From: Promethearchaeota archaeon
GTDB taxonomy: Archaea; Asgardarchaeota; Lokiarchaeia; Sigyniarchaeales; SOKP01
Reading direction: 5' to 3'
DNA length: 17,331 nt
Assembly (NCBI GenBank): GCA_019058015.1
Contig: JAHLWH010000082.1
Location: 1-17,331, forward strand
The notes beneath the pieces are model-generated. The model did no database searches and was not told where the DNA came from. It worked only from the letters and a program-made list of their open reading frames with translations. Position numbers and translations under genes: made by a program. Shown piece by piece: positions 5,543 to 14,014 of this stretch; position 1 is the stretch's first letter; every line of letters starts with the position of its first letter.

Positions 5543-6733
5543 ATGTTTGATATTAGCAATATTAAGACATTTACAGTAATTGGCGCTGGTACTATGGGTC
5601 GAGAAATTGCACAAGTAGCCCTCATGGCTGACTTTGAGAAAGTTATATTGACCGATATTGAAAAGGATGTAATGAATAGAGCTGAAGAATATATTATCAA
5701 TGGACTTAAGAGGCTTGAAGCTAAAAATAAATTAGGTGAGGGAGTTAGTACTGAAATGATCCTGGCAAAATTAGTAAAAGAAACGGATTTAATAAAGGCA
5801 GTATCAAATGCAGATTTCGTGATTGAAGCAGTTCCCGAAATTATGAAGATAAAGCAAGAAGTATTTGAGAAATTGGGTAAATTTTCACCAGAGCATACAA
5901 TTTTAGCATCAAACACATCAACAATGAGTATAACAAAAATAGGAGAACGTTCAGGAAAACCTGAAAAGGTAATAGGTATGCATTTCTTTATTCCTATTGT
6001 AGTTCTTAGGCTAATTGAATTAATTAAAGGAGAAAAAACATCTCAAGAAACAATGGGTATTAGTTATGCGGTTGGAATGAAATTACCAGCCCTTAAGGGA
6101 AAAAGATTTATTGTTCAAATTGAAAAAGAAAGCCCAGGATTTATCGTAAATAGATTAACAATTGGAGGTAATATGTATTTAAATTGTGTTGTTGATGAAG
6201 CATTCGAGAAAGGAATTCCATGGGAAGATGTTGATGCTGATGCTGGAGATTTAACACAATGGGGTCCTTTAGTAAAATTTGATTTTCTCGGCTTAGATGT
6301 AATATATCATTGTCAAAAATATTTTGAGGAGGCTCTCTCCTCAGATTTTAACCCAGGAAAAGTCATTACAAACCTTGTAAAAGAAGGTAATTTAGGAAGT
6401 AAAACTGGCAAGGGTTTTTATGAATGGACTGCAGATGGAAAACCTAAAATAAAAAAGGGAAAAAAAGCAGGGCTTTTTGATCTTGAAACTTATATGGCTG
6501 TTCAATTAAATGAAGGTTGTAGATTATTAGAAGAGGGAGTCGTTTCTGGTTATAAAATAATTGATGATACAATGTTGGCAGGTATGGATATGCCAGGTCC
6601 ATTTAGTGCTGGAAAAAGAAATTATGAAAAATGGGCAGAATTGTTAGAACAATTAGCAAACAAGACAGGAAAAGAATATTTTAGACCTTGTACTCTGATG
6701 AAATCGGGTGGTTTTATTAAGATGCGAAAATAA
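5543..6733 (+). CDS. 3-hydroxyacyl-CoA dehydrogenase, paralogue 2
   Basis: GAGTMG, EAVPE, SNTSTM, GMHFFIP, PGFIVNR, LGSKTGKGFY. Colinear with paralogue 1 and shares the KMRK end. Confidence 0.95.
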   Translation: MFDISNIKTFTVIGAGTMGREIAQVALMADFEKVILTDIEKDVMNRAEEYIINGLKRLEAKNKLGEGVSTEMILAKLVKETDLIKAVSNADFVIEAVPEIMKIKQEVFEKLGKFSPEHTILASNTSTMSITKIGERSGKPEKVIGMHFFIPIVVLRLIELIKGEKTSQETMGISYAVGMKLPALKGKRFIVQIEKESPGFIVNRLTIGGNMYLNCVVDEAFEKGIPWEDVDADAGDLTQWGPLVKFDFLGLDVIYHCQKYFEEALSSDFNPGKVITNLVKEGNLGSKTGKGFYEWTADGKPKIKKGKKAGLFDLETYMAVQLNEGCRLLEEGVVSGYKIIDDTMLAGMDMPGPFSAGKRNYEKWAELLEQLANKTGKEYFRPCTLMKSGGFIKMRK

Positions 6734-6831
6734 AAGATTAAAATATTACAAAAATATAATCGAATTTATTTGAATAATTTAATATAACGATTTTAAATAA
6801 AGAAAAGATTTTAAACTAAAGGGGAAAAGAG

Positions 6832-8019
6832 ATAATCGATATTAGCCATATTAAAAATATTGTTGTAGTTGGAGCTGGTATAATGGGTCTCGGTATCACT
6901 CAATCTGCATTATGGGGTGGTTTTGAGAAGGTTGTCTTAAATGATATTAAAATGGAACTAATTAATAATGGAGCAAAAAAGATTAAGGATGGATTGAGAA
7001 AATCTGAATCTAAAGGACAGTTAGGAGAAGGTATCACTACTGATGCGCTTATACTAAATCTGGCTAAAGAGGTGGATCTTGCAAAAGCTGTTGTAGATGC
7101 TGATTTTATATTTGAAGTAGTTACTGAGGATTTGAAAATTAAACAAGAAGTATTTAAAAAATTAGGAGAAAATGCACCTGAACATACTGTTTTTGCATCC
7201 AATACCTCAACTATAAGGATAACAGAATTGGGAAAAGCTTCAAATCGACCTGAACAAGTAATAGGTATGCACTTTTTCCTCCCTCCATATCGTCAAAGAG
7301 GGATTGAAATAATGAAAGGTGAAAAAACTTCTGATGATACTATGGAAATTTGTATGGCTGTTGGTCAAAAATTACCATGTCTTAATGGGAAAAGAGTGAT
7401 TGCTCAACTTGAAAAAGAAAGCCCGGGATTTATTGTAAATAGGCTACTTCTATCCGCCCAAATTTATTTTAATTGGATTCTTGATCAAGCAGAGGAGAAT
7501 GGGGTTTCATTTGAACAAATTGATGCAGATGCAGGTAAATTATTGTTAATGGGTCCATGTGAATTATCTGATTATCTAGGATTAGACACTTTTTATAATA
7601 GTATGAAATCATTTGAAAAAATACTTTCTCCAGATTTTGCTCCTGGAAAAGTCCTTACAAAATTGGTTTCGGAGGGAAATTTTGGAAAAAAAACTGGGAA
7701 AGGATTTTATAATTGGATTAAAGGAAAACCCAGAATAGATAGATCAATAAAGGCTGGACTGTTTAAAACAGAAATGATGATGGCTATTCAATTAAATGAG
7801 GGATGTAGGCTTTTAGAAGAAGGAATTGTTAAGGGATATAAGATTATTGATGATATCATGTTAAATGGCACTGGTATGCCTGGTCCATTTAGTGCTGGCA
7901 AACGTAACTATGAAAAATGGACTAAAATGTTAAATAAATTAGCGGATCAGATAGGAAAAGAATATCTTAGACCTTGTAAATTATTAGAGTCTGGAAATTT
8001 TATTAAAATGAGAAAGTGA
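6832..8019 (+). CDS. 3-hydroxyacyl-CoA dehydrogenase, paralogue 3 (probable ATA start at 6832)
   Basis: Same motifs (GMHFFLP). The annotated ATG 6883 lies inside the GxGxxG motif. The upstream frame reads (ATA)IDISHIKNIVVVGAGI, aligning with MFDISNIKTFTVIGAGT of paralogue 2. An in-frame TAA sits at 6817. Confidence 0.9.
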   Translation: MIDISHIKNIVVVGAGIMGLGITQSALWGGFEKVVLNDIKMELINNGAKKIKDGLRKSESKGQLGEGITTDALILNLAKEVDLAKAVVDADFIFEVVTEDLKIKQEVFKKLGENAPEHTVFASNTSTIRITELGKASNRPEQVIGMHFFLPPYRQRGIEIMKGEKTSDDTMEICMAVGQKLPCLNGKRVIAQLEKESPGFIVNRLLLSAQIYFNWILDQAEENGVSFEQIDADAGKLLLMGPCELSDYLGLDTFYNSMKSFEKILSPDFAPGKVLTKLVSEGNFGKKTGKGFYNWIKGKPRIDRSIKAGLFKTEMMMAIQLNEGCRLLEEGIVKGYKIIDDIMLNGTGMPGPFSAGKRNYEKWTKMLNKLADQIGKEYLRPCKLLESGNFIKMRK

Positions 8020-8068
8020 GTAGCTAAAGAATTTAAATTATTTAGAGAGAAATTTCTAATCGATTTTA

Positions 8069-9141
8069 TTATTCTATTGCTGAAGTATCTCCCTCTTGGA
8101 GTATAACTCTAATTTTTTCAGCCTCTTTGAGAAATTCATTTCCTAAACTATCATCACCCAATTCAAAGCATAAATCTGCTATTTTTTCACAATATTCTAA
8201 AGCTTCTTCAAACCTTGAGTTAGCAAGTGCTGATTCTGCCTTTTCTAACATAGTATCTCTTTCAAATAATGGTCTTAATAAAGGACTTACATCTCCACTT
8301 ATTTCTAAGATATCTGCAATTATATTAATCATTTTTTCTCTATTACTTGGATCAATAGCAACCATCTTGTAAGTTTTTGTACCTTAAATTTTTTCAATTT
8401 CTATAACGGGAAGTGCTCCTGGTAAATCTAGCTTATTACCAATTATAGCCGCATGAGTATTTGGTGCCTCATCTTTAATTAAATCTAAAAAAAATCTACT
8501 TTTTTCAACATTTTCTAGAGTAGAATCCGTAATTATGAGCACCCCATCACTTCCTCTAATAAATTTATTCCATAAAAAGCTGAATTGCTCTTGACCGGCA
8601 AAATCCCACAGTAAAAACTGCAATTTCCCGATTTTAATTGTCGATACCTCTCCAGAGATAGTAGGAACATGTTCCGTTGGGATTTCTTCCGCTCTAATTA
8701 ACCTTGTAGTTGTAGTCTTTCCGACACCAGAAAATCCGACTAGTGAGATTTTTGGTTTTAAATTACGGTGTATTGCATCTAATGTTGGGTCAAATAAATC
8801 AAAAGTATTAGTATCAAATTTACCATCTGCTAATATATCAGAGAAAAAAGTAAGAAATTCTTCTTTACATTTCAATATCTGGTTTCCAAGTTTTCACAAG
8901 ATAGGGATAAACTGCTTAAATAGATAACTATCAAACCTAATTCTTTAGATGTTGTATAAACTACTCTTGATTTATAATAATCGAAATAATTAGTTTTATC
9001 GGTAGGTCCCTTAAAAGCATCTTTAGATATTTGGTCTAACAAACTTTGAAAGAGTTCTTTAGTAACTGCTTTTCCAAAATTGCGAAAATATAATAAATTA
9101 TTGTCTTTATAGATATAAACTTGTCTTAAAATTAAAAACAC
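8069..9141 (-). pseudogene. Interrupted longin-like domain + Arf/Rab-like small GTPase + C-terminal helical domain (about 355 aa if repaired)
   Basis: Three ORFs join into one gene: a 1-nt frameshift within 8875-8893 and an in-frame TAA at 8384-8386 (EKI*GTKTYKMVAID, same frame). G1 GFSGVGKT, G2 PT, G3 WDFAGQE, G4 NKLD; the G5 region lies after the stop. The longin-like call rests on the beta-beta-alpha-beta-beta-beta-alpha pattern. Confidence 0.8.
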
Positions 9142-9524
9142 CCTATTGAGATTAATAAGTATTTAATGCAAGTTTTTACTTTCTTTATCTCATAATGAAA
9201 AATTTGAAATTTAAATTTATTTACAAAGTATTTTTCTATCAAATAAATTTGTAGATATAGGACTGAGAGTAATGAAAATACTTTTTAGAGATTATTTTTA
9301 TTTATTATGAGAAATATTTATATTAAAATTCAAGATTATGACCAGTAAAAGAAAATTTCTATTCCAGGGTGTTATTAGATGATATTCAAGATGCTTTTAA
9401 TTTCTTTTTTGATGACCATTATAATGCAGCTAACATGAAATATAGAAAAAAAATAGTCCTAGAAGATTTTGAAAAAGTTAATAAAGGAAAAAAATAAAAA
9501 AAATTGTAAAATGTATAACATTTT

Positions 9525-10469
9525 TCACATCTTAATTAATTGTCCAATAGCATCCATTAAAGTTTCTTTTTTAGGAGCCCCTTTCAGTAATTCCGATTTA
9601 ACTCTGTCAGCTAATTCTTGAGGTGTAAATTTCTTTCCATTATTGCTGATACTATTGTAAGTGTGCCATCCTTGAAAGACCCATACTCGATCTGCCACCA
9701 CTCGAAATACTTCACCGTTTATTCTTTTAGCATCATCAGAAGCTAAAAAGACAACCATTGGAGCTATATTGACTGGATTAAACACATCAAAGCCACTTTC
9801 ATCAAATTTATTCATGACTTCAACCATTTGGGGAGTTGCATCAGTTGTAAGTCTTGTTCTCGCTACCGGAACAATGCAATTAACTGTCGCATATTTCTTT
9901 AACTCCATCGCGGCAATAACCGTAAATGCTGCGATTCCTGCTTTTGCAGCGCCGTAATTCGTTTGCCCCATATTTCCTAATAAACCTGCATCAGAAGCGG
10001 TGTTGATAACCCTTCCAAAGTTTTTTAATGATGGGTCCGCTTTACATCGTTGCCTAAAGTAATTAACAGCATGGCGAGTCATATTAAAGGTCCCTTTCAA
10101 ATGAACAGCTATTATATCATCAAATTCTGCTTCACTCATGTTAAAAAGCATACGATCACGGAGGATTCCTGCGTTGTTTACCAAGATATCTAGTTTTCCA
10201 AATTCTGATATCGCTTGATCAATCATTCCCTTGGCTTTATCAAAATCTGTTACTGTATCGTAATTACCAACGGCTTTTACACCCAACTTTATACACTCTT
10301 CAGCAACCTCGTCAGCGATTTTTTTTTCAGAACCAGATCCGTCAAACGCTGCTCCTAAGTCATTAATTACTAGGTTGCAACCTTCTTTTGCCATGGCTAA
10401 GGCTTCTTCACGACCTAAACCTCTTCCAGCACCAGTTATAATTGCAACCTTTCCATCTAACAATCCCAT
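9525..10469 (-). CDS. Short-chain dehydrogenase/reductase, MFE-2/HSD17B4-like hydroxyacyl-CoA dehydrogenase
   Basis: TGAGRGLG, 'VINDLG..FDGSG' insertion, NNAGILRD, VHLKG, GNMGQTNYGAAK (YxxxK). Confidence 0.92.
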   Translation of the reverse strand: MGLLDGKVAIITGAGRGLGREEALAMAKEGCNLVINDLGAAFDGSGSEKKIADEVAEECIKLGVKAVGNYDTVTDFDKAKGMIDQAISEFGKLDILVNNAGILRDRMLFNMSEAEFDDIIAVHLKGTFNMTRHAVNYFRQRCKADPSLKNFGRVINTASDAGLLGNMGQTNYGAAKAGIAAFTVIAAMELKKYATVNCIVPVARTRLTTDATPQMVEVMNKFDESGFDVFNPVNIAPMVVFLASDDAKRINGEVFRVVADRVWVFQGWHTYNSISNNGKKFTPQELADRVKSELLKGAPKKETLMDAIGQLIKM

Positions 10470-10603
10470 ATTTCGATATCCCTCTTATTATGTATTTTAA
10501 AACTCTTTTTTGTTATATTTAAAAAATTTGATGGAACTTATTTATTTCTTATCAAATGATTTAATATTTTTTAAAAATAGAATAAAACAAACAAATTCTA
10601 AAT

Positions 10604-11329
10604 TTATAATATCTCCTTATTTACTTTTTTAATTCCAAAAATCAATTCCTTATTTTTATCTAAATAATTATGACCAAAACCTTTAATCTTTCTAAGTGGT
10701 CCCTCAATTCCCTTTGGATTTCCGGTTTTGGTATATATAGTAAATGAGTGTTTAATTGCTTTGAGAACTTTATAAGGAGTTTTAAAATGATCAATCAATT
10801 GGACTGCTTTTTTTGGACCAGTATCATAAAGTCCTTCAATGATAAAAGACATTCTTTCTTCAATAGATAAACCTTTAGGCGCTTTTCGAGAAATTATTGG
10901 TGCTTTATCTTTTATTTGTTCTCTTATTGCAATTCTTTCAATCACGATTGCAGTATCATTAATATTTCTGGTAGGGATCACACTGATTCCTAATTTATAT
11001 GAAACATATGCTAATGCTCCATAAATTGAACTTATTTTCATTCCGGTATTATCAAAGACCTCGTCATTTAAGCCTTCAATTATAAGAATTGGTGTGGAAT
11101 ATGTATCTTTTAACCTTAAAAGTTGCTCAAACAAGCGATTATCCATAATCGATGTTACAAAATCAAAACCAGTCTTACGTTCTATGGCAATTTCATTAGT
11201 GATAATAATATCTGCAACATCTAATTGCTTAGTTTGCAGTAATATTTGATCCTTCTTTTTGGAAAATATATCTATCAATTTCCTTTCGCGATTATCCAAA
11301 ATAATTTGGAGGAGATTATTTGAAGCCAC
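10604..11329 (-). CDS. xpf: ERCC4-domain structure-specific endonuclease (short XPF/Mus81 type, nuclease + HhH2)
   Basis: 'IILDNRE', 'LDVADII', 'IERKTGFDF..SI.D.RLFEQ', 'LIIEG' and HhH-like 'GLYDTGPKKA' and 'IKGFG'. Start moved to GTG 11329, behind SD AAGGTG. Confidence 0.88.
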   Translation of the reverse strand: MASNNLLQIILDNRERKLIDIFSKKKDQILLQTKQLDVADIIITNEIAIERKTGFDFVTSIMDNRLFEQLLRLKDTYSTPILIIEGLNDEVFDNTGMKISSIYGALAYVSYKLGISVIPTRNINDTAIVIERIAIREQIKDKAPIISRKAPKGLSIEERMSFIIEGLYDTGPKKAVQLIDHFKTPYKVLKAIKHSFTIYTKTGNPKGIEGPLRKIKGFGHNYLDKNKELIFGIKKVNKEIL

Positions 11330-11398
11330 TTTAATACACCTTGAAAAAATAAATGATTTTAGATTTAAATAAGCAATGACTGACAAAATTTTTTTATT

Positions 11399-12217
11399 CT
11401 ATTCAATGGACTCTTTAAATTCCACTCGCTCTCCCGTATCGACAATTCTTCTAACTCTTTGCACATTTACTTTACGCATTTCTGTATTATTTTTAAATTT
11501 TCGAGCAGGTTGGCCAATATAAGTCCAATCTTTTTCTAACCTTTGTCCTATATTAGTCATTGCCCAAACACCAAGAACAGAACCCTTTTCCATAACAGTT
11601 CCGGGAGAAACAACAGCATAACCTCCAATTATGCAATGATCTCCAATTATAACCTTTTTAAGAAGCATATAATCTCCAATAACAATACTAGAAAGAATTA
11701 TAGCACCCTGTCCAACCATAATATTTTTTCCAAATTCTACAAACTCATAATCTACCCATCCATCAAATAAAGTTGATTTAAAATCAGCCTTCATTCCACA
11801 AATTTTAAACGCGAGGTTTGTGATCCATGGGACCGGGAAAGAATTCCATATATAAAAAATAAATTTTTTAATAGTTGCACGAAAGCAATAGTAAGAATAA
11901 TCTTTATCTTTAAGACTAATTTTAAAGATTCCTTCTCTTGGTTTATGGATTAAATTTAAAATAATTAATAGACATTTACCTACTCCTAAAGTTATAAGCA
12001 AAAAGCAAAAATACCAAGCCAAAATATCGATCGGCAACCTAATAATCATAAAATTTAGAATTGTATTTTTCAACACATTACCATAAAATGTAAAAAAAAG
12101 ATATGTAGTAGGAGAAAGGGATATAAAAATCAAAAAAACATAAATTATACTAAATCTTTTCGCGATCGGAGGGCTTGTTGTAACAGGAACCTCGTCAGAA
12201 TTGTGATTAATCTCCAA
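11399..12217 (-). CDS. Membrane-anchored left-handed beta-helix (acyltransferase-like) protein, one TM-TM-LbH unit
   Basis: Two N-terminal hydrophobic helices, 'HKPREGIF', hexapeptide repeats (FGKNIMVGQGAII; IGDHCIIGGYAVVSPG), ending 'YIGQPAR'. TTG start behind GGAGGT, overlapping the upstream gene by 11 nt. Confidence 0.85.
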   Translation of the reverse strand: MEINHNSDEVPVTTSPPIAKRFSIIYVFLIFISLSPTTYLFFTFYGNVLKNTILNFMIIRLPIDILAWYFCFLLITLGVGKCLLIILNLIHKPREGIFKISLKDKDYSYYCFRATIKKFIFYIWNSFPVPWITNLAFKICGMKADFKSTLFDGWVDYEFVEFGKNIMVGQGAIILSSIVIGDYMLLKKVIIGDHCIIGGYAVVSPGTVMEKGSVLGVWAMTNIGQRLEKDWTYIGQPARKFKNNTEMRKVNVQRVRRIVDTGERVEFKESIE

Positions 12218-13883
12218 TATCTATACCTCCTAAATATTTTTTTAATTCTTCTTTAGAAATTCTCCTTAATGGAAAACCAGCATAAAAACCATTATCTCCC
12301 AATTTATCTAATTTTACAGTAGCACACATCGGTAATAAAGTGGATTTTTCACCAACTTCCGTTCCTGGGAAACCTCCACAGTAAGCTGATAATACAGAAT
12401 TATTACCAACTTTAACTCCAAAAAATGTTATATTTTCCTCTCCAAAGAAACCATCAACCAGATGATTGGTTAGATAACAAAATTGACCAAAATAACAATT
12501 TTCTCCAGTATTTAAAAATTCCTTAGTAATAAATTGGTCTTCGAATGTTGTTCTTTTTCCTATTTTATTAGCGCCTATAAAATTTAACACCCAATTAGTT
12601 AGCCAAGGAAATGGACTTTTTGAAAATGCTAATACTGGATATTTTAATAAGAAGGAACGGTGATGATAGAAATTTAATTCTTTTGATCCAAAATTCCTAT
12701 CTAATACTCCTTGTCTTGATGGAGAAAGTTTTTCACTCCACCGATATAACAATTTTGTGAATAATGCCACAAAAAATAGATGCAATAAATACAAGCCCAT
12801 GAGGACAAGTGGCGTAATAAATAATAAAAATTGTGAGAATAAATTTGTAAAATTAACCCACCCGAAAGGAGTGCTAAAAAGATAAGGTATCAAAACTTCA
12901 TATAGAAAGAAAAAAAATGGAATTGCAGGAATTAAAAATGACCCGCCTACATTTAAAATAATTACTGGAATGTAAATATGGAATTGAACTCTTATATGGT
13001 GTTGATTTTCTTTCTTTAAATTATTGGTTTGTTGCTGAACATCTGATTTATCATAAATTAAAGTTTCTGCATGGACATTTTGATATATATCTTTACTATC
13101 GCTTTTTTCAAATAATATTGCCTTAAGATTATCAATTTTTTCATTAACAGTATAATCCCCAATTTTTATTGCTGGAGTTCCTTTATACACACAGCCAGCC
13201 TCTAAGACTTGATTTATATGGGTTGAAGATACCGCATTTAAAATAGCACCCTTTCTAAATTTTGTTCCGGGCGCAACTAAAGAATGAGCACCAATTATTG
13301 AATCATCTTCAATGATTGTTTTTTGAATAATCAAATAATTATCAATGATAATTGCCCCCATTACGACACTTCCTACACCAACAATCACATTTTTCCCAAA
13401 TTCAATGAATTCGCAATCGATCCATCCTTCAAACATGTAATTATTGAAATTTGTTTTCACGCCAAACACTTTAAATAAAATATTATCTAAATATGGCATA
13501 GGAAAGTTATGAGTTATCCATACAGGCCATTTTTTTATAAGCGCTCTTATACTCCAATAAATATAATCTTTATTATCTTTACTTCTCTTAAATACACCTT
13601 CTTTTGGCTTGTGAATTAAATTAACAACGATTAGAAATATTTTTGCTATAAATATTGATGAGAAAATTATAATTAAATAGCAAAATAAGAGTTCTAACGG
13701 AAAGAGAAGATAAAAAATTATAGTTATGGGATTTGTAAAATTAGATAGAAAAATCCAAAAACTAATTAAAGCTGGGTAAAAGCTTAGAGTTATAATACTT
13801 AAATAAATTAATATCAATCTTTTCTTATATGGTAAAGTATTTGTAGTAAATGGTCCAACTCTTAGTGAAGCCGGGATTGAGAT
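12207..13883 (-). CDS. Membrane-anchored left-handed beta-helix protein, two TM-TM-LbH units (probable ATC start 13883; TTG 13817 alternative)
   Basis: Internal duplication: TMs-'HKPKEGVF'-LbH-'YKGTPA', then TMs-'PSRQGVL'-'GANKIG' LbH-'YAGFPLR'. Unit 1 is clearly paralogous to the downstream gene. Confidence 0.85.
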   Translation of the reverse strand: MSIPASLRVGPFTTNTLPYKKRLILIYLSIITLSFYPALISFWIFLSNFTNPITIIFYLLFPLELLFCYLIIIFSSIFIAKIFLIVVNLIHKPKEGVFKRSKDNKDYIYWSIRALIKKWPVWITHNFPMPYLDNILFKVFGVKTNFNNYMFEGWIDCEFIEFGKNVIVGVGSVVMGAIIIDNYLIIQKTIIEDDSIIGAHSLVAPGTKFRKGAILNAVSSTHINQVLEAGCVYKGTPAIKIGDYTVNEKIDNLKAILFEKSDSKDIYQNVHAETLIYDKSDVQQQTNNLKKENQHHIRVQFHIYIPVIILNVGGSFLIPAIPFFFFLYEVLIPYLFSTPFGWVNFTNLFSQFLLFITPLVLMGLYLLHLFFVALFTKLLYRWSEKLSPSRQGVLDRNFGSKELNFYHHRSFLLKYPVLAFSKSPFPWLTNWVLNFIGANKIGKRTTFEDQFITKEFLNTGENCYFGQFCYLTNHLVDGFFGEENITFFGVKVGNNSVLSAYCGGFPGTEVGEKSTLLPMCATVKLDKLGDNGFYAGFPLRRISKEELKKYLGGIDIGD

Positions 13884-14014
13884 TTATTTCTCACTTCTTC
13901 TTATTTGCTAAATAATTGGAAAAAATATATAATCATTATAATATGTTTAAAATTTATTAATCTTCCTTAAATTGATAATTGAATTGAAAAAAACGCATAA
14001 ATAATTAGAAATTA

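Follow-up and report, generated by a model that had tools for sequence, protein, structure and literature searches.

Putative AUH initiation codons behind Shine-Dalgarno motifs in a Lokiarchaeia-type Asgard archaeon

Introduction

Which codon starts translation when the position expected for the initiator of a gene is occupied by ATA, ATT or ATC? The question is raised by three genes in a 17,331-nt stretch of archaeal DNA (the window), which is the entire contig C74 of a metagenome-assembled genome (MAG): a 3-hydroxyacyl-CoA dehydrogenase family gene (dh3) with ATA at 6832, a longin-GTPase gene with ATT at 9132, and a gene for a large membrane protein with left-handed beta-helix (LbH) repeats with ATC at 13883. 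A preliminary description of the window had read these codons as starts placed behind Shine-Dalgarno (SD) motifs, and had attributed them to relaxed start-codon selection in the lineage and not to unrelated accidents. From the comparisons reported here, we consider it probable (roughly 0.8) that the three codons are real initiation codons, used under a regime of SD-positioned AUN plus NUG initiation. Throughout the text, ATH stands for ATA, ATT or ATC, and canonical for ATG, GTG or TTG.

The source genome (G000) has 3.84 Mb in 283 contigs and a GC content of 29.4%, and the closest named records are those of Promethearchaeia or Promethearchaeota archaeon, that is, of Lokiarchaeia-type Asgard archaea. 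Two genomes of the same genus, G001 and G004, match the window in synteny, with a nucleotide identity of about 92%, and were the congeners compared with the source genome, together with G002 for the ribosomal protein eS4; Nop5 was compared in four congeners. In all, about 2 Mb outside the source genome were sampled for comparisons.

Results

The ATA codon of dh3

The 3' end of the 16S rRNA was located on contig C75 and reads ...GGATCACCTCCT, with ...GGAUCACCUCCU as the pairing segment, so that the expected SD motif is a piece of GGAGGTGATC. Judging from the G enrichment at -14 to -7 and from motif spacing, SD motifs are used by a minority of genes: a 4-mer motif precedes 504 of the 1986 first ATG codons of the source genome (25%) and a strong 5-mer motif 296 of them, and the distance to first-ATG starts peaks at 4-9 nt on the aligned SD scale. 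Within the window, the canonical reference for this spacing is xpf (ERCC4 according to Pfam), whose start region (11327..11342, minus strand) holds AAGGTG at 11342..11337, 7 nt, and GTG at 11329. The three ATH codons have spacers of 6-7 nt, and the match to canonical genes claimed in the preliminary description was confirmed.

Read from ATA (6832..6834), dh3 (6832..8019, plus strand) encodes a protein of 395 amino acids (aa). An in-frame stop, TAA at 6817..6819, closes the frame upstream, and 6 nt ahead of the ATA lies the SD-like AAGGGGA (6819..6825), which pairs with the 16S 3' end with one G-U pair. The reference for the N-terminus was the paralogue dh2 (5543..6733, plus strand), which starts with ATG; dh2 reads M-F-D-I-S-N-I-K-T-F-T-V-I-G-A-G-T-M-G and dh3 reads I-I-D-I-S-H-I-K-N-I-V-V-V-G-A-G-I-M-G, the ATA standing exactly at the paralogue Met, as originally described. 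The start region is free of gaps across the orthologues of the three species, with AAGGGGAAAAGAG-ATA-ATC in G000, GAGGGGACAAAAG-ATA-GTA in G001 and GAGGGGAAAAAAG-ATG-GTA in G004, and the SD motif reads GAGGGGA in both congeners. By this comparison, the ATG/ATA difference at the dh3 start arose recently inside the genus. The frame runs for 399 codons without a stop in all three species, and the ratio of nonsynonymous to synonymous substitution (dN/dS) is 0.205 between G000 and G001, which both carry ATA (dS 0.30), 0.254 between G000 and G004, and 0.479 between G001 and G004, where dS is just 0.044; the gene is thus under purifying selection.

One alternative holds that translation begins at the nearest canonical codon of each gene (ATG 6883, GTG 9141 and TTG 13817), the ATH codons being untranslated leader or ordinary isoleucine codons, and indeed such a codon exists in all three genes. 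In dh3, however, the earliest canonical codon after TAA 6817 is ATG 6883, which lies within the GxGxxG motif (GAGIMG), and a start there loses 17 residues, including the G-A-G of this motif and positions 1-9 of the 3HCDH_N profile. Both Pfam domains of the ATA-started protein pass their cut-offs of 22 and 22.1 bits (3HCDH_N, 153.7 bits, residues 10-181, profile 2-170; 3HCDH, 83.3 bits, residues 199-295), and since 3HCDH_N starts at residue 10, at profile position 2, a protein called from ATG 6883 has its domain start cut off. This is how the gene has been called: all 14 protein clusters at 96-100% identity are 378 aa long, 17 residues short, while a cluster at 86% identity and more distant homologues have 393-402 aa. 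The expectation that standard gene callers would truncate such proteins was borne out for dh3.

The possibility that errors of sequencing or assembly produced the ATH codons could draw on the 283 contigs of the MAG and on at least one indel not seen elsewhere. It is nevertheless extremely improbable, since identical ATH codons occur in independently assembled genomes, and the 14 near-identical dh3 clusters, which come from several sources, all have 378 aa. Moreover, the window was compared with contigs, not raw reads, of sequencing runs other than the source (X3, X6, X7 and X12): ATA at 6832-6834 is unchanged, with no ATG there, in those of X3, X6 and X7, which belong to three studies, one being the study of the possible source. 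The X12 contig was not judged at 6832, as 13 of its differences from the window were not shown. None of the runs listed as containing the stretch was of RNA.

The ATC codon of the LbH gene

The large LbH gene (12207..13883, minus strand) encodes 558 aa from ATC (13881..13883). Two LbH genes with hexapeptide repeats are present in the window, and the Pfam Hexapep match of the large one, 24.6 bits, lies below the cut-off of 27. The SD-like GAAGTGA (13891..13897), identical in G001 and G004, stands 7 nt ahead of the ATC, exactly as first noted; the seven letters between them, GAAATAA, end in an in-frame TAA (13886..13884) immediately 5' of the ATC. As in dh3, no canonical codon occurs between the upstream stop and the conserved N-terminus, and the earliest one, TTG 13817, would drop 22 conserved residues.

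When the codon aligned to ATC 13883 was tallied over 30 loci, it was ATG in 15 (MSVPSSLRVGPFT), GTG in one, ATC in four (G000, G004, G001 and G014) and ATT in another four (G016, G019, G022 and G015); four loci from order-level genomes have an ATG one or two codons further upstream, one locus is unclear and one runs off the contig end. The 22-residue N-terminal stretch is conserved in 29 of the 30 loci and Met-initial in 15. The residues that follow the start, S-x-P-x-S-L-R-V-G-P-F-T, are conserved, so the stretch is coding and TTG 13817 is not the LbH start. Most matches of the protein to 41 relatives begin at query residue 1-3. Since the group of long orthologues (about 540-560 aa) has ATH in at least five genera, the proposed ATH start of this gene is old.

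Codons 23 and 24 of the gene (window 13812-13817, minus strand) read TTG-ATA in G000, TTT-ATG in G004 and TTT-GTG in G001. The ATG and GTG at codon 24 of the congeners speak for a start at the nearest canonical codon, and gene callers do take this position for the start; it is an internal Met/Val/Ile position.

The ATT codon of the longin-GTPase gene

The third gene (8384..9132, minus strand) combines a longin-like N-terminal domain with a small GTPase (Arf/Roc/Ras) and lies in two frames in the assembly, of which the downstream one matches Arf/Roc/Ras in Pfam. As had been described, the proposed ATT (9130..9132) is preceded by AGGGTG (9139..9144) with a spacer of 6 nt (TTTTTA). Two features go beyond that description: the gene is split by a 1-nt deletion at 8882..8883 (minus strand; GGAAA-CCAG here and GGAAAGCCAG elsewhere), and the SD motif contains a GTG of its own (9141..9139), in frame and three codons upstream of the ATT. 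The orthologue in G001 is a single open frame of 393 aa, and the base missing in the window is present there, in the contigs of X6, X7 and X12, and as a minority form in X3. Either strain variation or misassembly accounts for the deletion.

Among 30 loci, including the window, the codon aligned to ATT 9132 is ATT in 15, ATA in five, ATC in two, ACG in one, ATG in six and GTG in one, and the residues at the aligned start are [M/I]-L-R-Q-V-Y-I-Y-K. The window copy, G001 and four further loci have a GTG at the upstream position (as in AGGGTG or TAGGTGA), which is what a start at the nearest canonical codon would call for. In 15 loci, however, the SD is (G)GTGA with an in-frame TGA three codons upstream, and 12 of these have ATH or ACG at the start, so that an upstream start is impossible there and, as in dh3 and LbH, no canonical codon precedes the conserved N-terminus. 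Reading AGGGTG as the SD of the window copy is consistent with these loci, although GTG 9141 remains a formal canonical start for it. Both the LbH and the GTPase ATH starts are, by these alignments, common to several genera.

The surroundings of the gene vary within the genus: window positions 8134-9197, which hold the longin-GTPase and an adjacent small open reading frame (ORF), are absent from the syntenic stretch of G004, and G001 carries about 1.7 kb extra after window position 9234. In a layout that recurs in the longin-GTPase (L263-L292) and in RmlA (L203-L215), the SD core GGTGA ends in a TGA that is itself an in-frame stop, 2-3 codons before the start.

ATH starts in other genes

Genes outside the window show the same arrangement, essential ones included. 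The ribosomal protein eS4, with a single match in the source genome, reads AAGGAGTGA, 7 nt (AAAAAAA) and ATA in G000, G002 and G004 (three of four congeneric loci), whereas the G001 gene and, without exception, the 26 loci from other genera start with ATG (27 of 30 overall). Nop5, also a single match, reads AAGGGGACTAA-ATT-ATT-AAG in four of four congeners; in the 25 other usable loci its start is ATG in 23, GTG in one and TTG in one. RmlA starts with ATT in eight of 14 orthologous loci, from four genera, and in three of these eight loci a GTG or TTG also lies in frame, 2-3 codons upstream; the remaining loci have ATG (four), GTT (one) and TTG (one). Many ORFs with long stretches devoid of canonical starts turned out to have recognisable N-termini, and nine genes were chosen solely by such a stretch and a recognisable N-terminal motif, namely eS4, a Zn-ADH (IKAAVF), two Rossmann proteins, two GTPases, a ParA-like ATPase, an aldehyde:ferredoxin oxidoreductase (AOR) and an SMC protein, and an SD-like motif stands 4-8 nt before an ATH in all nine. 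Finally, among 48 SD-preceded near-cognate candidates with an orthologue in G004, the codon is the same there in 36 and is ATG in one, dh3. The distance to the earliest downstream canonical codon is 87 codons from the ATA of eS4 and 99 codons from the ATT of Nop5, and with this evidence added, initiation at the nearest canonical codon is unlikely as a general account.

A different reading is that the genes are decaying and that AT-biased mutation (ATG to ATA), at a GC content of 29%, has disabled their starts and left the ATH codons. ATG to ATA is indeed the commonest change at internal Met codons (80 of about 2439 aligned), the window copy of the GTPase gene has a frameshift and G004 lacks the region that holds the gene, and a canonical codon lies adjacent in two of the four ATG-to-ATH start changes described below. 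Decay is, however, hard to reconcile with the dN/dS of 0.2-0.25 of dh3 against the congeners and its stop-free frame in three species, with the retention of ATH by the single-match genes eS4 and Nop5 in three to four species, and with the persistence of the LbH and GTPase ATH starts in several genera in intact frames of 540-700 aa; the GTPase frameshift itself is absent from G001 and from the contigs of four other runs. We regard decay as very unlikely.

Genome-wide excess of SD-led ATH codons

From the source genome, 3107 ORFs were used, each defined from stop to stop, 100 codons or longer, and positive in coding score. The region scored ran from the upstream stop to the first canonical codon, the last 5 codons excluded, and a strong SD was a 5-mer motif 4-9 nt upstream; 4-mers had given an enrichment of only about 2-fold, confounded by G-rich coding sequence, and were replaced by 5-mers with frame controls. 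In-frame ATH codons have a strong SD about four times as often as out-of-frame ones. Strong SDs precede 66 of 1345 in-frame ATT codons and 21 of 1906 out-of-frame ones (p = 5e-11); for ATA the counts are 47/1031 in frame and 23/1512 out of frame (p = 6e-6), and for ATC 18/314 and 18/677 (p = 0.027). The in-frame control codons AAT, TAT and TTT have a strong SD in about 1% of cases. Deep inside genes the SD rate is similar for all codons (about 0.083), and therefore amino-acid context does not explain the ATH excess. The spacing profile has its maximum at 6-7 nt for ATH in frame, near that of ATG, and is flat for ATH out of frame. After subtraction of the out-of-frame rates, about 90 excess ATH hits remain, as compared with 419 first-canonical codons under an equal SD definition, which puts them, on a rough estimate, at about one SD-led start in five and some 3% of ORFs.

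Stricter criteria required the codon to lie no more than 10 codons past the stop and 10 or more codons ahead of the first canonical one, with coding-like sequence downstream. They left a strong SD at 53 of 443 ATH codons and at 88 of 2311 other codons in the source genome (p = 1.7e-10), the ATH codons belonging to 50 genes (ATT 25, ATA 19, ATC 6); on contig C10 of G004 the counts were 14/98 and 10/432 (p = 9e-6). In two further samples of 400 kb each, one drawn from three other genera of the family (7/229 in frame and 7/317 out of frame; strict criteria, 2/25 and 2/95) and one from G032 (7/170 and 7/268; strict, 2/24 and 4/103), the excess has the same direction as in the source genome but is not significant, at low power. 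These outgroup samples being underpowered, the breadth of the trait rests on the single-gene comparisons given above.

An artefact of TATA-box promoters at a fixed distance was considered as a source of the signal and rejected, as the distances from the candidates to the first canonical codon are broadly spread.

Other codons were scored in the same way. ACG (11/76 in frame and 4/121 out of frame, p = 0.0056) and CTG (7/59 and 8/269, p = 0.0085) are also in in-frame excess behind strong SDs, and AAG is not (15/443 and 30/992, p = 0.74); examples of the excess are found on C278 (AOR gi242) and C105 (LbH paralogue gi1589). The ACG and CTG excess suggests a wider near-cognate spectrum.

Several observations weigh against this reading or temper it. 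In the window, the GTPase gene has a possible canonical start in GTG 9141 and a frameshift; in G004 the gene is missing. The repeat protein gi468 (C139) supplies eight of the 131 in-frame ATH hits and five of the 11 ACG hits, and the SD-based candidate list contains false positives, since in eL19 and in a methylmalonyl-CoA mutase subunit the candidate codon is followed 6-7 codons later by an ATG. First-ATG starts on contig C10 of G004 (n = 297) correspond to ATG in the source genome in 262 cases, with 19 unaligned, seven affected by gaps, most of which keep an ATG on inspection, and nine substituted (ATA 2, ATC 1, ATT 1, GTG 1, others 4). The four ATG-to-ATH cases are dh3, one followed by an ATG, one followed by a GTG, and one in a diverged stretch; the adjacent ATG or GTG in two of the four looks like compensation. 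ATG starts being well conserved between congeners and ATG still strongly preferred, ATH would be tolerated and not equivalent to ATG. Lastly, a tally of the codons aligned to the Met of paralogues with confident starts has no ATH peak (29 of 315 at offset 0, and 21-41 at neighbouring offsets); its power was low, the N-termini being too variable, and even ATG accounts there for no more than 61 of 315. The homologue alignments at dh3, LbH, GTPase, eS4 and Nop5 place ATH at the Met position. Taken with eS4, Nop5 and the genome-wide excess, these alignments support relaxed start selection in the lineage over unrelated accidents.

Discussion

How could AUH codons serve as starts in this organism? 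We propose that the duplex between the SD motif and the 16S 3' end would bring into the P site a codon lying 4-9 nt downstream, and that the initiation machinery would accept AUN alongside NUG, in the genus and at least partly in the wider family. Most likely, the ordinary initiator Met-tRNA (CAU) would pair with the first two bases, the mismatch at the third position being tolerated, so that methionine would be the first residue. As the underlying cause we infer relaxed proofreading, of the aIF1/aIF2 type, combined with a strong dependence on the SD.

AUH initiation might also be real but owed to a dedicated decoding change, such as a modified wobble base in the initiator or a second initiator-like tRNA. 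The modified base f5C34 lets mitochondrial tRNA-Met read AUA. That all three AUH codons are used and interchange among orthologues would fit a wobble-position effect, and only two tRNAs with a CAU anticodon were recognised among the 36 tRNA matches (Rfam RF00005) of the source genome, a set that is incompletely known. A tRNA-SeC is present. Introns interrupt the majority of the tRNA genes (lengths 90-138 nt), because of which ARAGORN finds few tRNAs and none with CAU. On the other hand, the initiator-like tRNA gene (G000:C81:18254-18350), which has an intron, shows the usual A1:U72, three G:C pairs in the anticodon stem (GGG/CCC) and a CAU anticodon, and the excess of ACG (six hits outside the repeat protein) and CTG (seven) is unexplained by a change at the wobble position. 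A dedicated decoding change seems to us improbable, if slightly less so than initiation at the nearest canonical codons. The ordinary look of this tRNA also counts against the preferred reading, initiation at AUH by the standard tRNA under relaxed proofreading, in that it gives no mechanism.

The initiation factors themselves offered two observations. SUI1 matches, two in G000 and one each in G001 and G004, point to aIF1, and in the four aIF1 frames that were read, two from G000 and one each from G004 and G032 (L300:1447-1875, minus; L303:1474-1830, minus; L299:1372-1773, plus; L301:1474-1860, minus), no ATG occurs before the zinc-knuckle cysteines; the candidate starts are GTG, TTG or ATH behind motifs of the GGAGTGA/GAGGTGA type. 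An aIF1 without ATG recalls autoregulation of the infC type, although these are candidate starts only. In the aIF2-gamma gene of the source genome (C243, L293:1705-1785, minus strand), a 29-nt insertion lies between the GHVDHG and KTTLVKAI codons of the P-loop. Its flanks pair into a stable fold resembling a helix-bulge-helix (-26.2 kcal/mol, z = -4.4), and the insertion could be spliceable, as a small intron of the kind found in archaeal tRNA genes, or else be a disruption or an assembly artefact. As a cause of the ATH starts the insertion was rejected, since G001 and G004 lack it and yet use ATH starts.

Going beyond the genus, we suggest tentatively, at somewhat less than even odds, that the working start-codon set of the whole family is AUN plus NUG, perhaps with ACG, behind an SD, and that AUH would be a stable, selected state in a few percent of genes, ribosomal and small nucleolar ribonucleoprotein genes among them, some of them kept across genera. 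The exclusion of AAG and the lack of AUG on aIF1 would then point to a lineage-wide lowered stringency of aIF1/aIF2.

The consequences for annotation are direct. Gene callers restricted to ATG, GTG and TTG truncate or lose proteins; besides the 17 residues of dh3, eS4 would lose 87 and Nop5 99, and the longin-GTPases, a eukaryote-like signature family, are mostly ATH-started. Such truncation distorts domain calls, structure predictions, marker-based estimates of completeness and comparisons of Asgard proteomes. Stringency of start selection is set by aIF1, aIF1A and aIF2, the direct counterparts of eukaryotic factors, and a lineage with routine AUH starts would be a natural system in which to study how stringency evolves and whether weak starts tune expression; if true, a lowered aIF1/aIF2 stringency would sit in the archaeal group closest to eukaryotes.

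Three known systems come close to the proposed one. Rare starts in bacteria and archaea are the first: NCBI genetic code table 11 allows ATT, ATC, ATA and CTG as rare starts, and infC of Escherichia coli starts at AUU. In both cases a near-cognate AUH follows an SD, is presumably decoded by the initiator tRNA, and is missed by callers limited to canonical codons. The difference is one of scale, since those are rare exceptions while here 50 genes in one genome pass the strict criteria and about 90 SD-led ATH are in excess, essential genes included; for comparison, a survey of 36 groups of closely related genomes gives a single AUG-to-AUU switch among 61,358 ancestral AUG starts (PMC5622118).

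The second system, closer in its codons, is the mitochondrion. As in these genes, ATA, ATT and ATC occur there beside ATG and interchange among orthologues. AUN initiation in mitochondria is laid down in genetic code tables 2, 4 and 5. Here, in contrast, the organism is a cellular archaeon, initiation is SD-led, the tRNA set is not reduced in the mitochondrial manner, and nothing suggests that internal AUA is decoded as Met, although internal ATA codons were not tallied against homologues.

The third is near-cognate initiation in eukaryotes, which is controlled by eIF1, eIF1A and eIF2. The factor family is the same, and here changes at the first and third positions as well as ACG appear to be accepted, and AAG not. 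Unlike the eukaryotic case, however, the start would be found by SD pairing and not by scanning, and the near-cognates would be the main starts of housekeeping genes instead of minor upstream ORFs or N-terminal extensions. The role of the archaeal counterparts aIF1, aIF1A and aIF2 in start-codon selection is treated in a review (PMC7531240).

For the Lokiarchaeia in particular, the passages on the start regions of the cultured Prometheoarchaeum and of Lokiarchaea describe SD motifs as not prevalent and make no mention of non-canonical starts (PMC7531240, PMC12993045), whereas 25% of first ATG codons carry a 4-mer SD motif here. In another paper, 'Lokiarchaeota' and 'non-AUG' occur in unrelated passages (PMC8211752), and our literature search, which left subscription-only papers outside, found no report of AUH or other non-canonical starts in Asgard archaea. 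Set beside these systems, what is new, as far as the genomes compared here indicate, is the scale and the setting: routine and conserved AUH starts, essential genes included, in an Asgard lineage.

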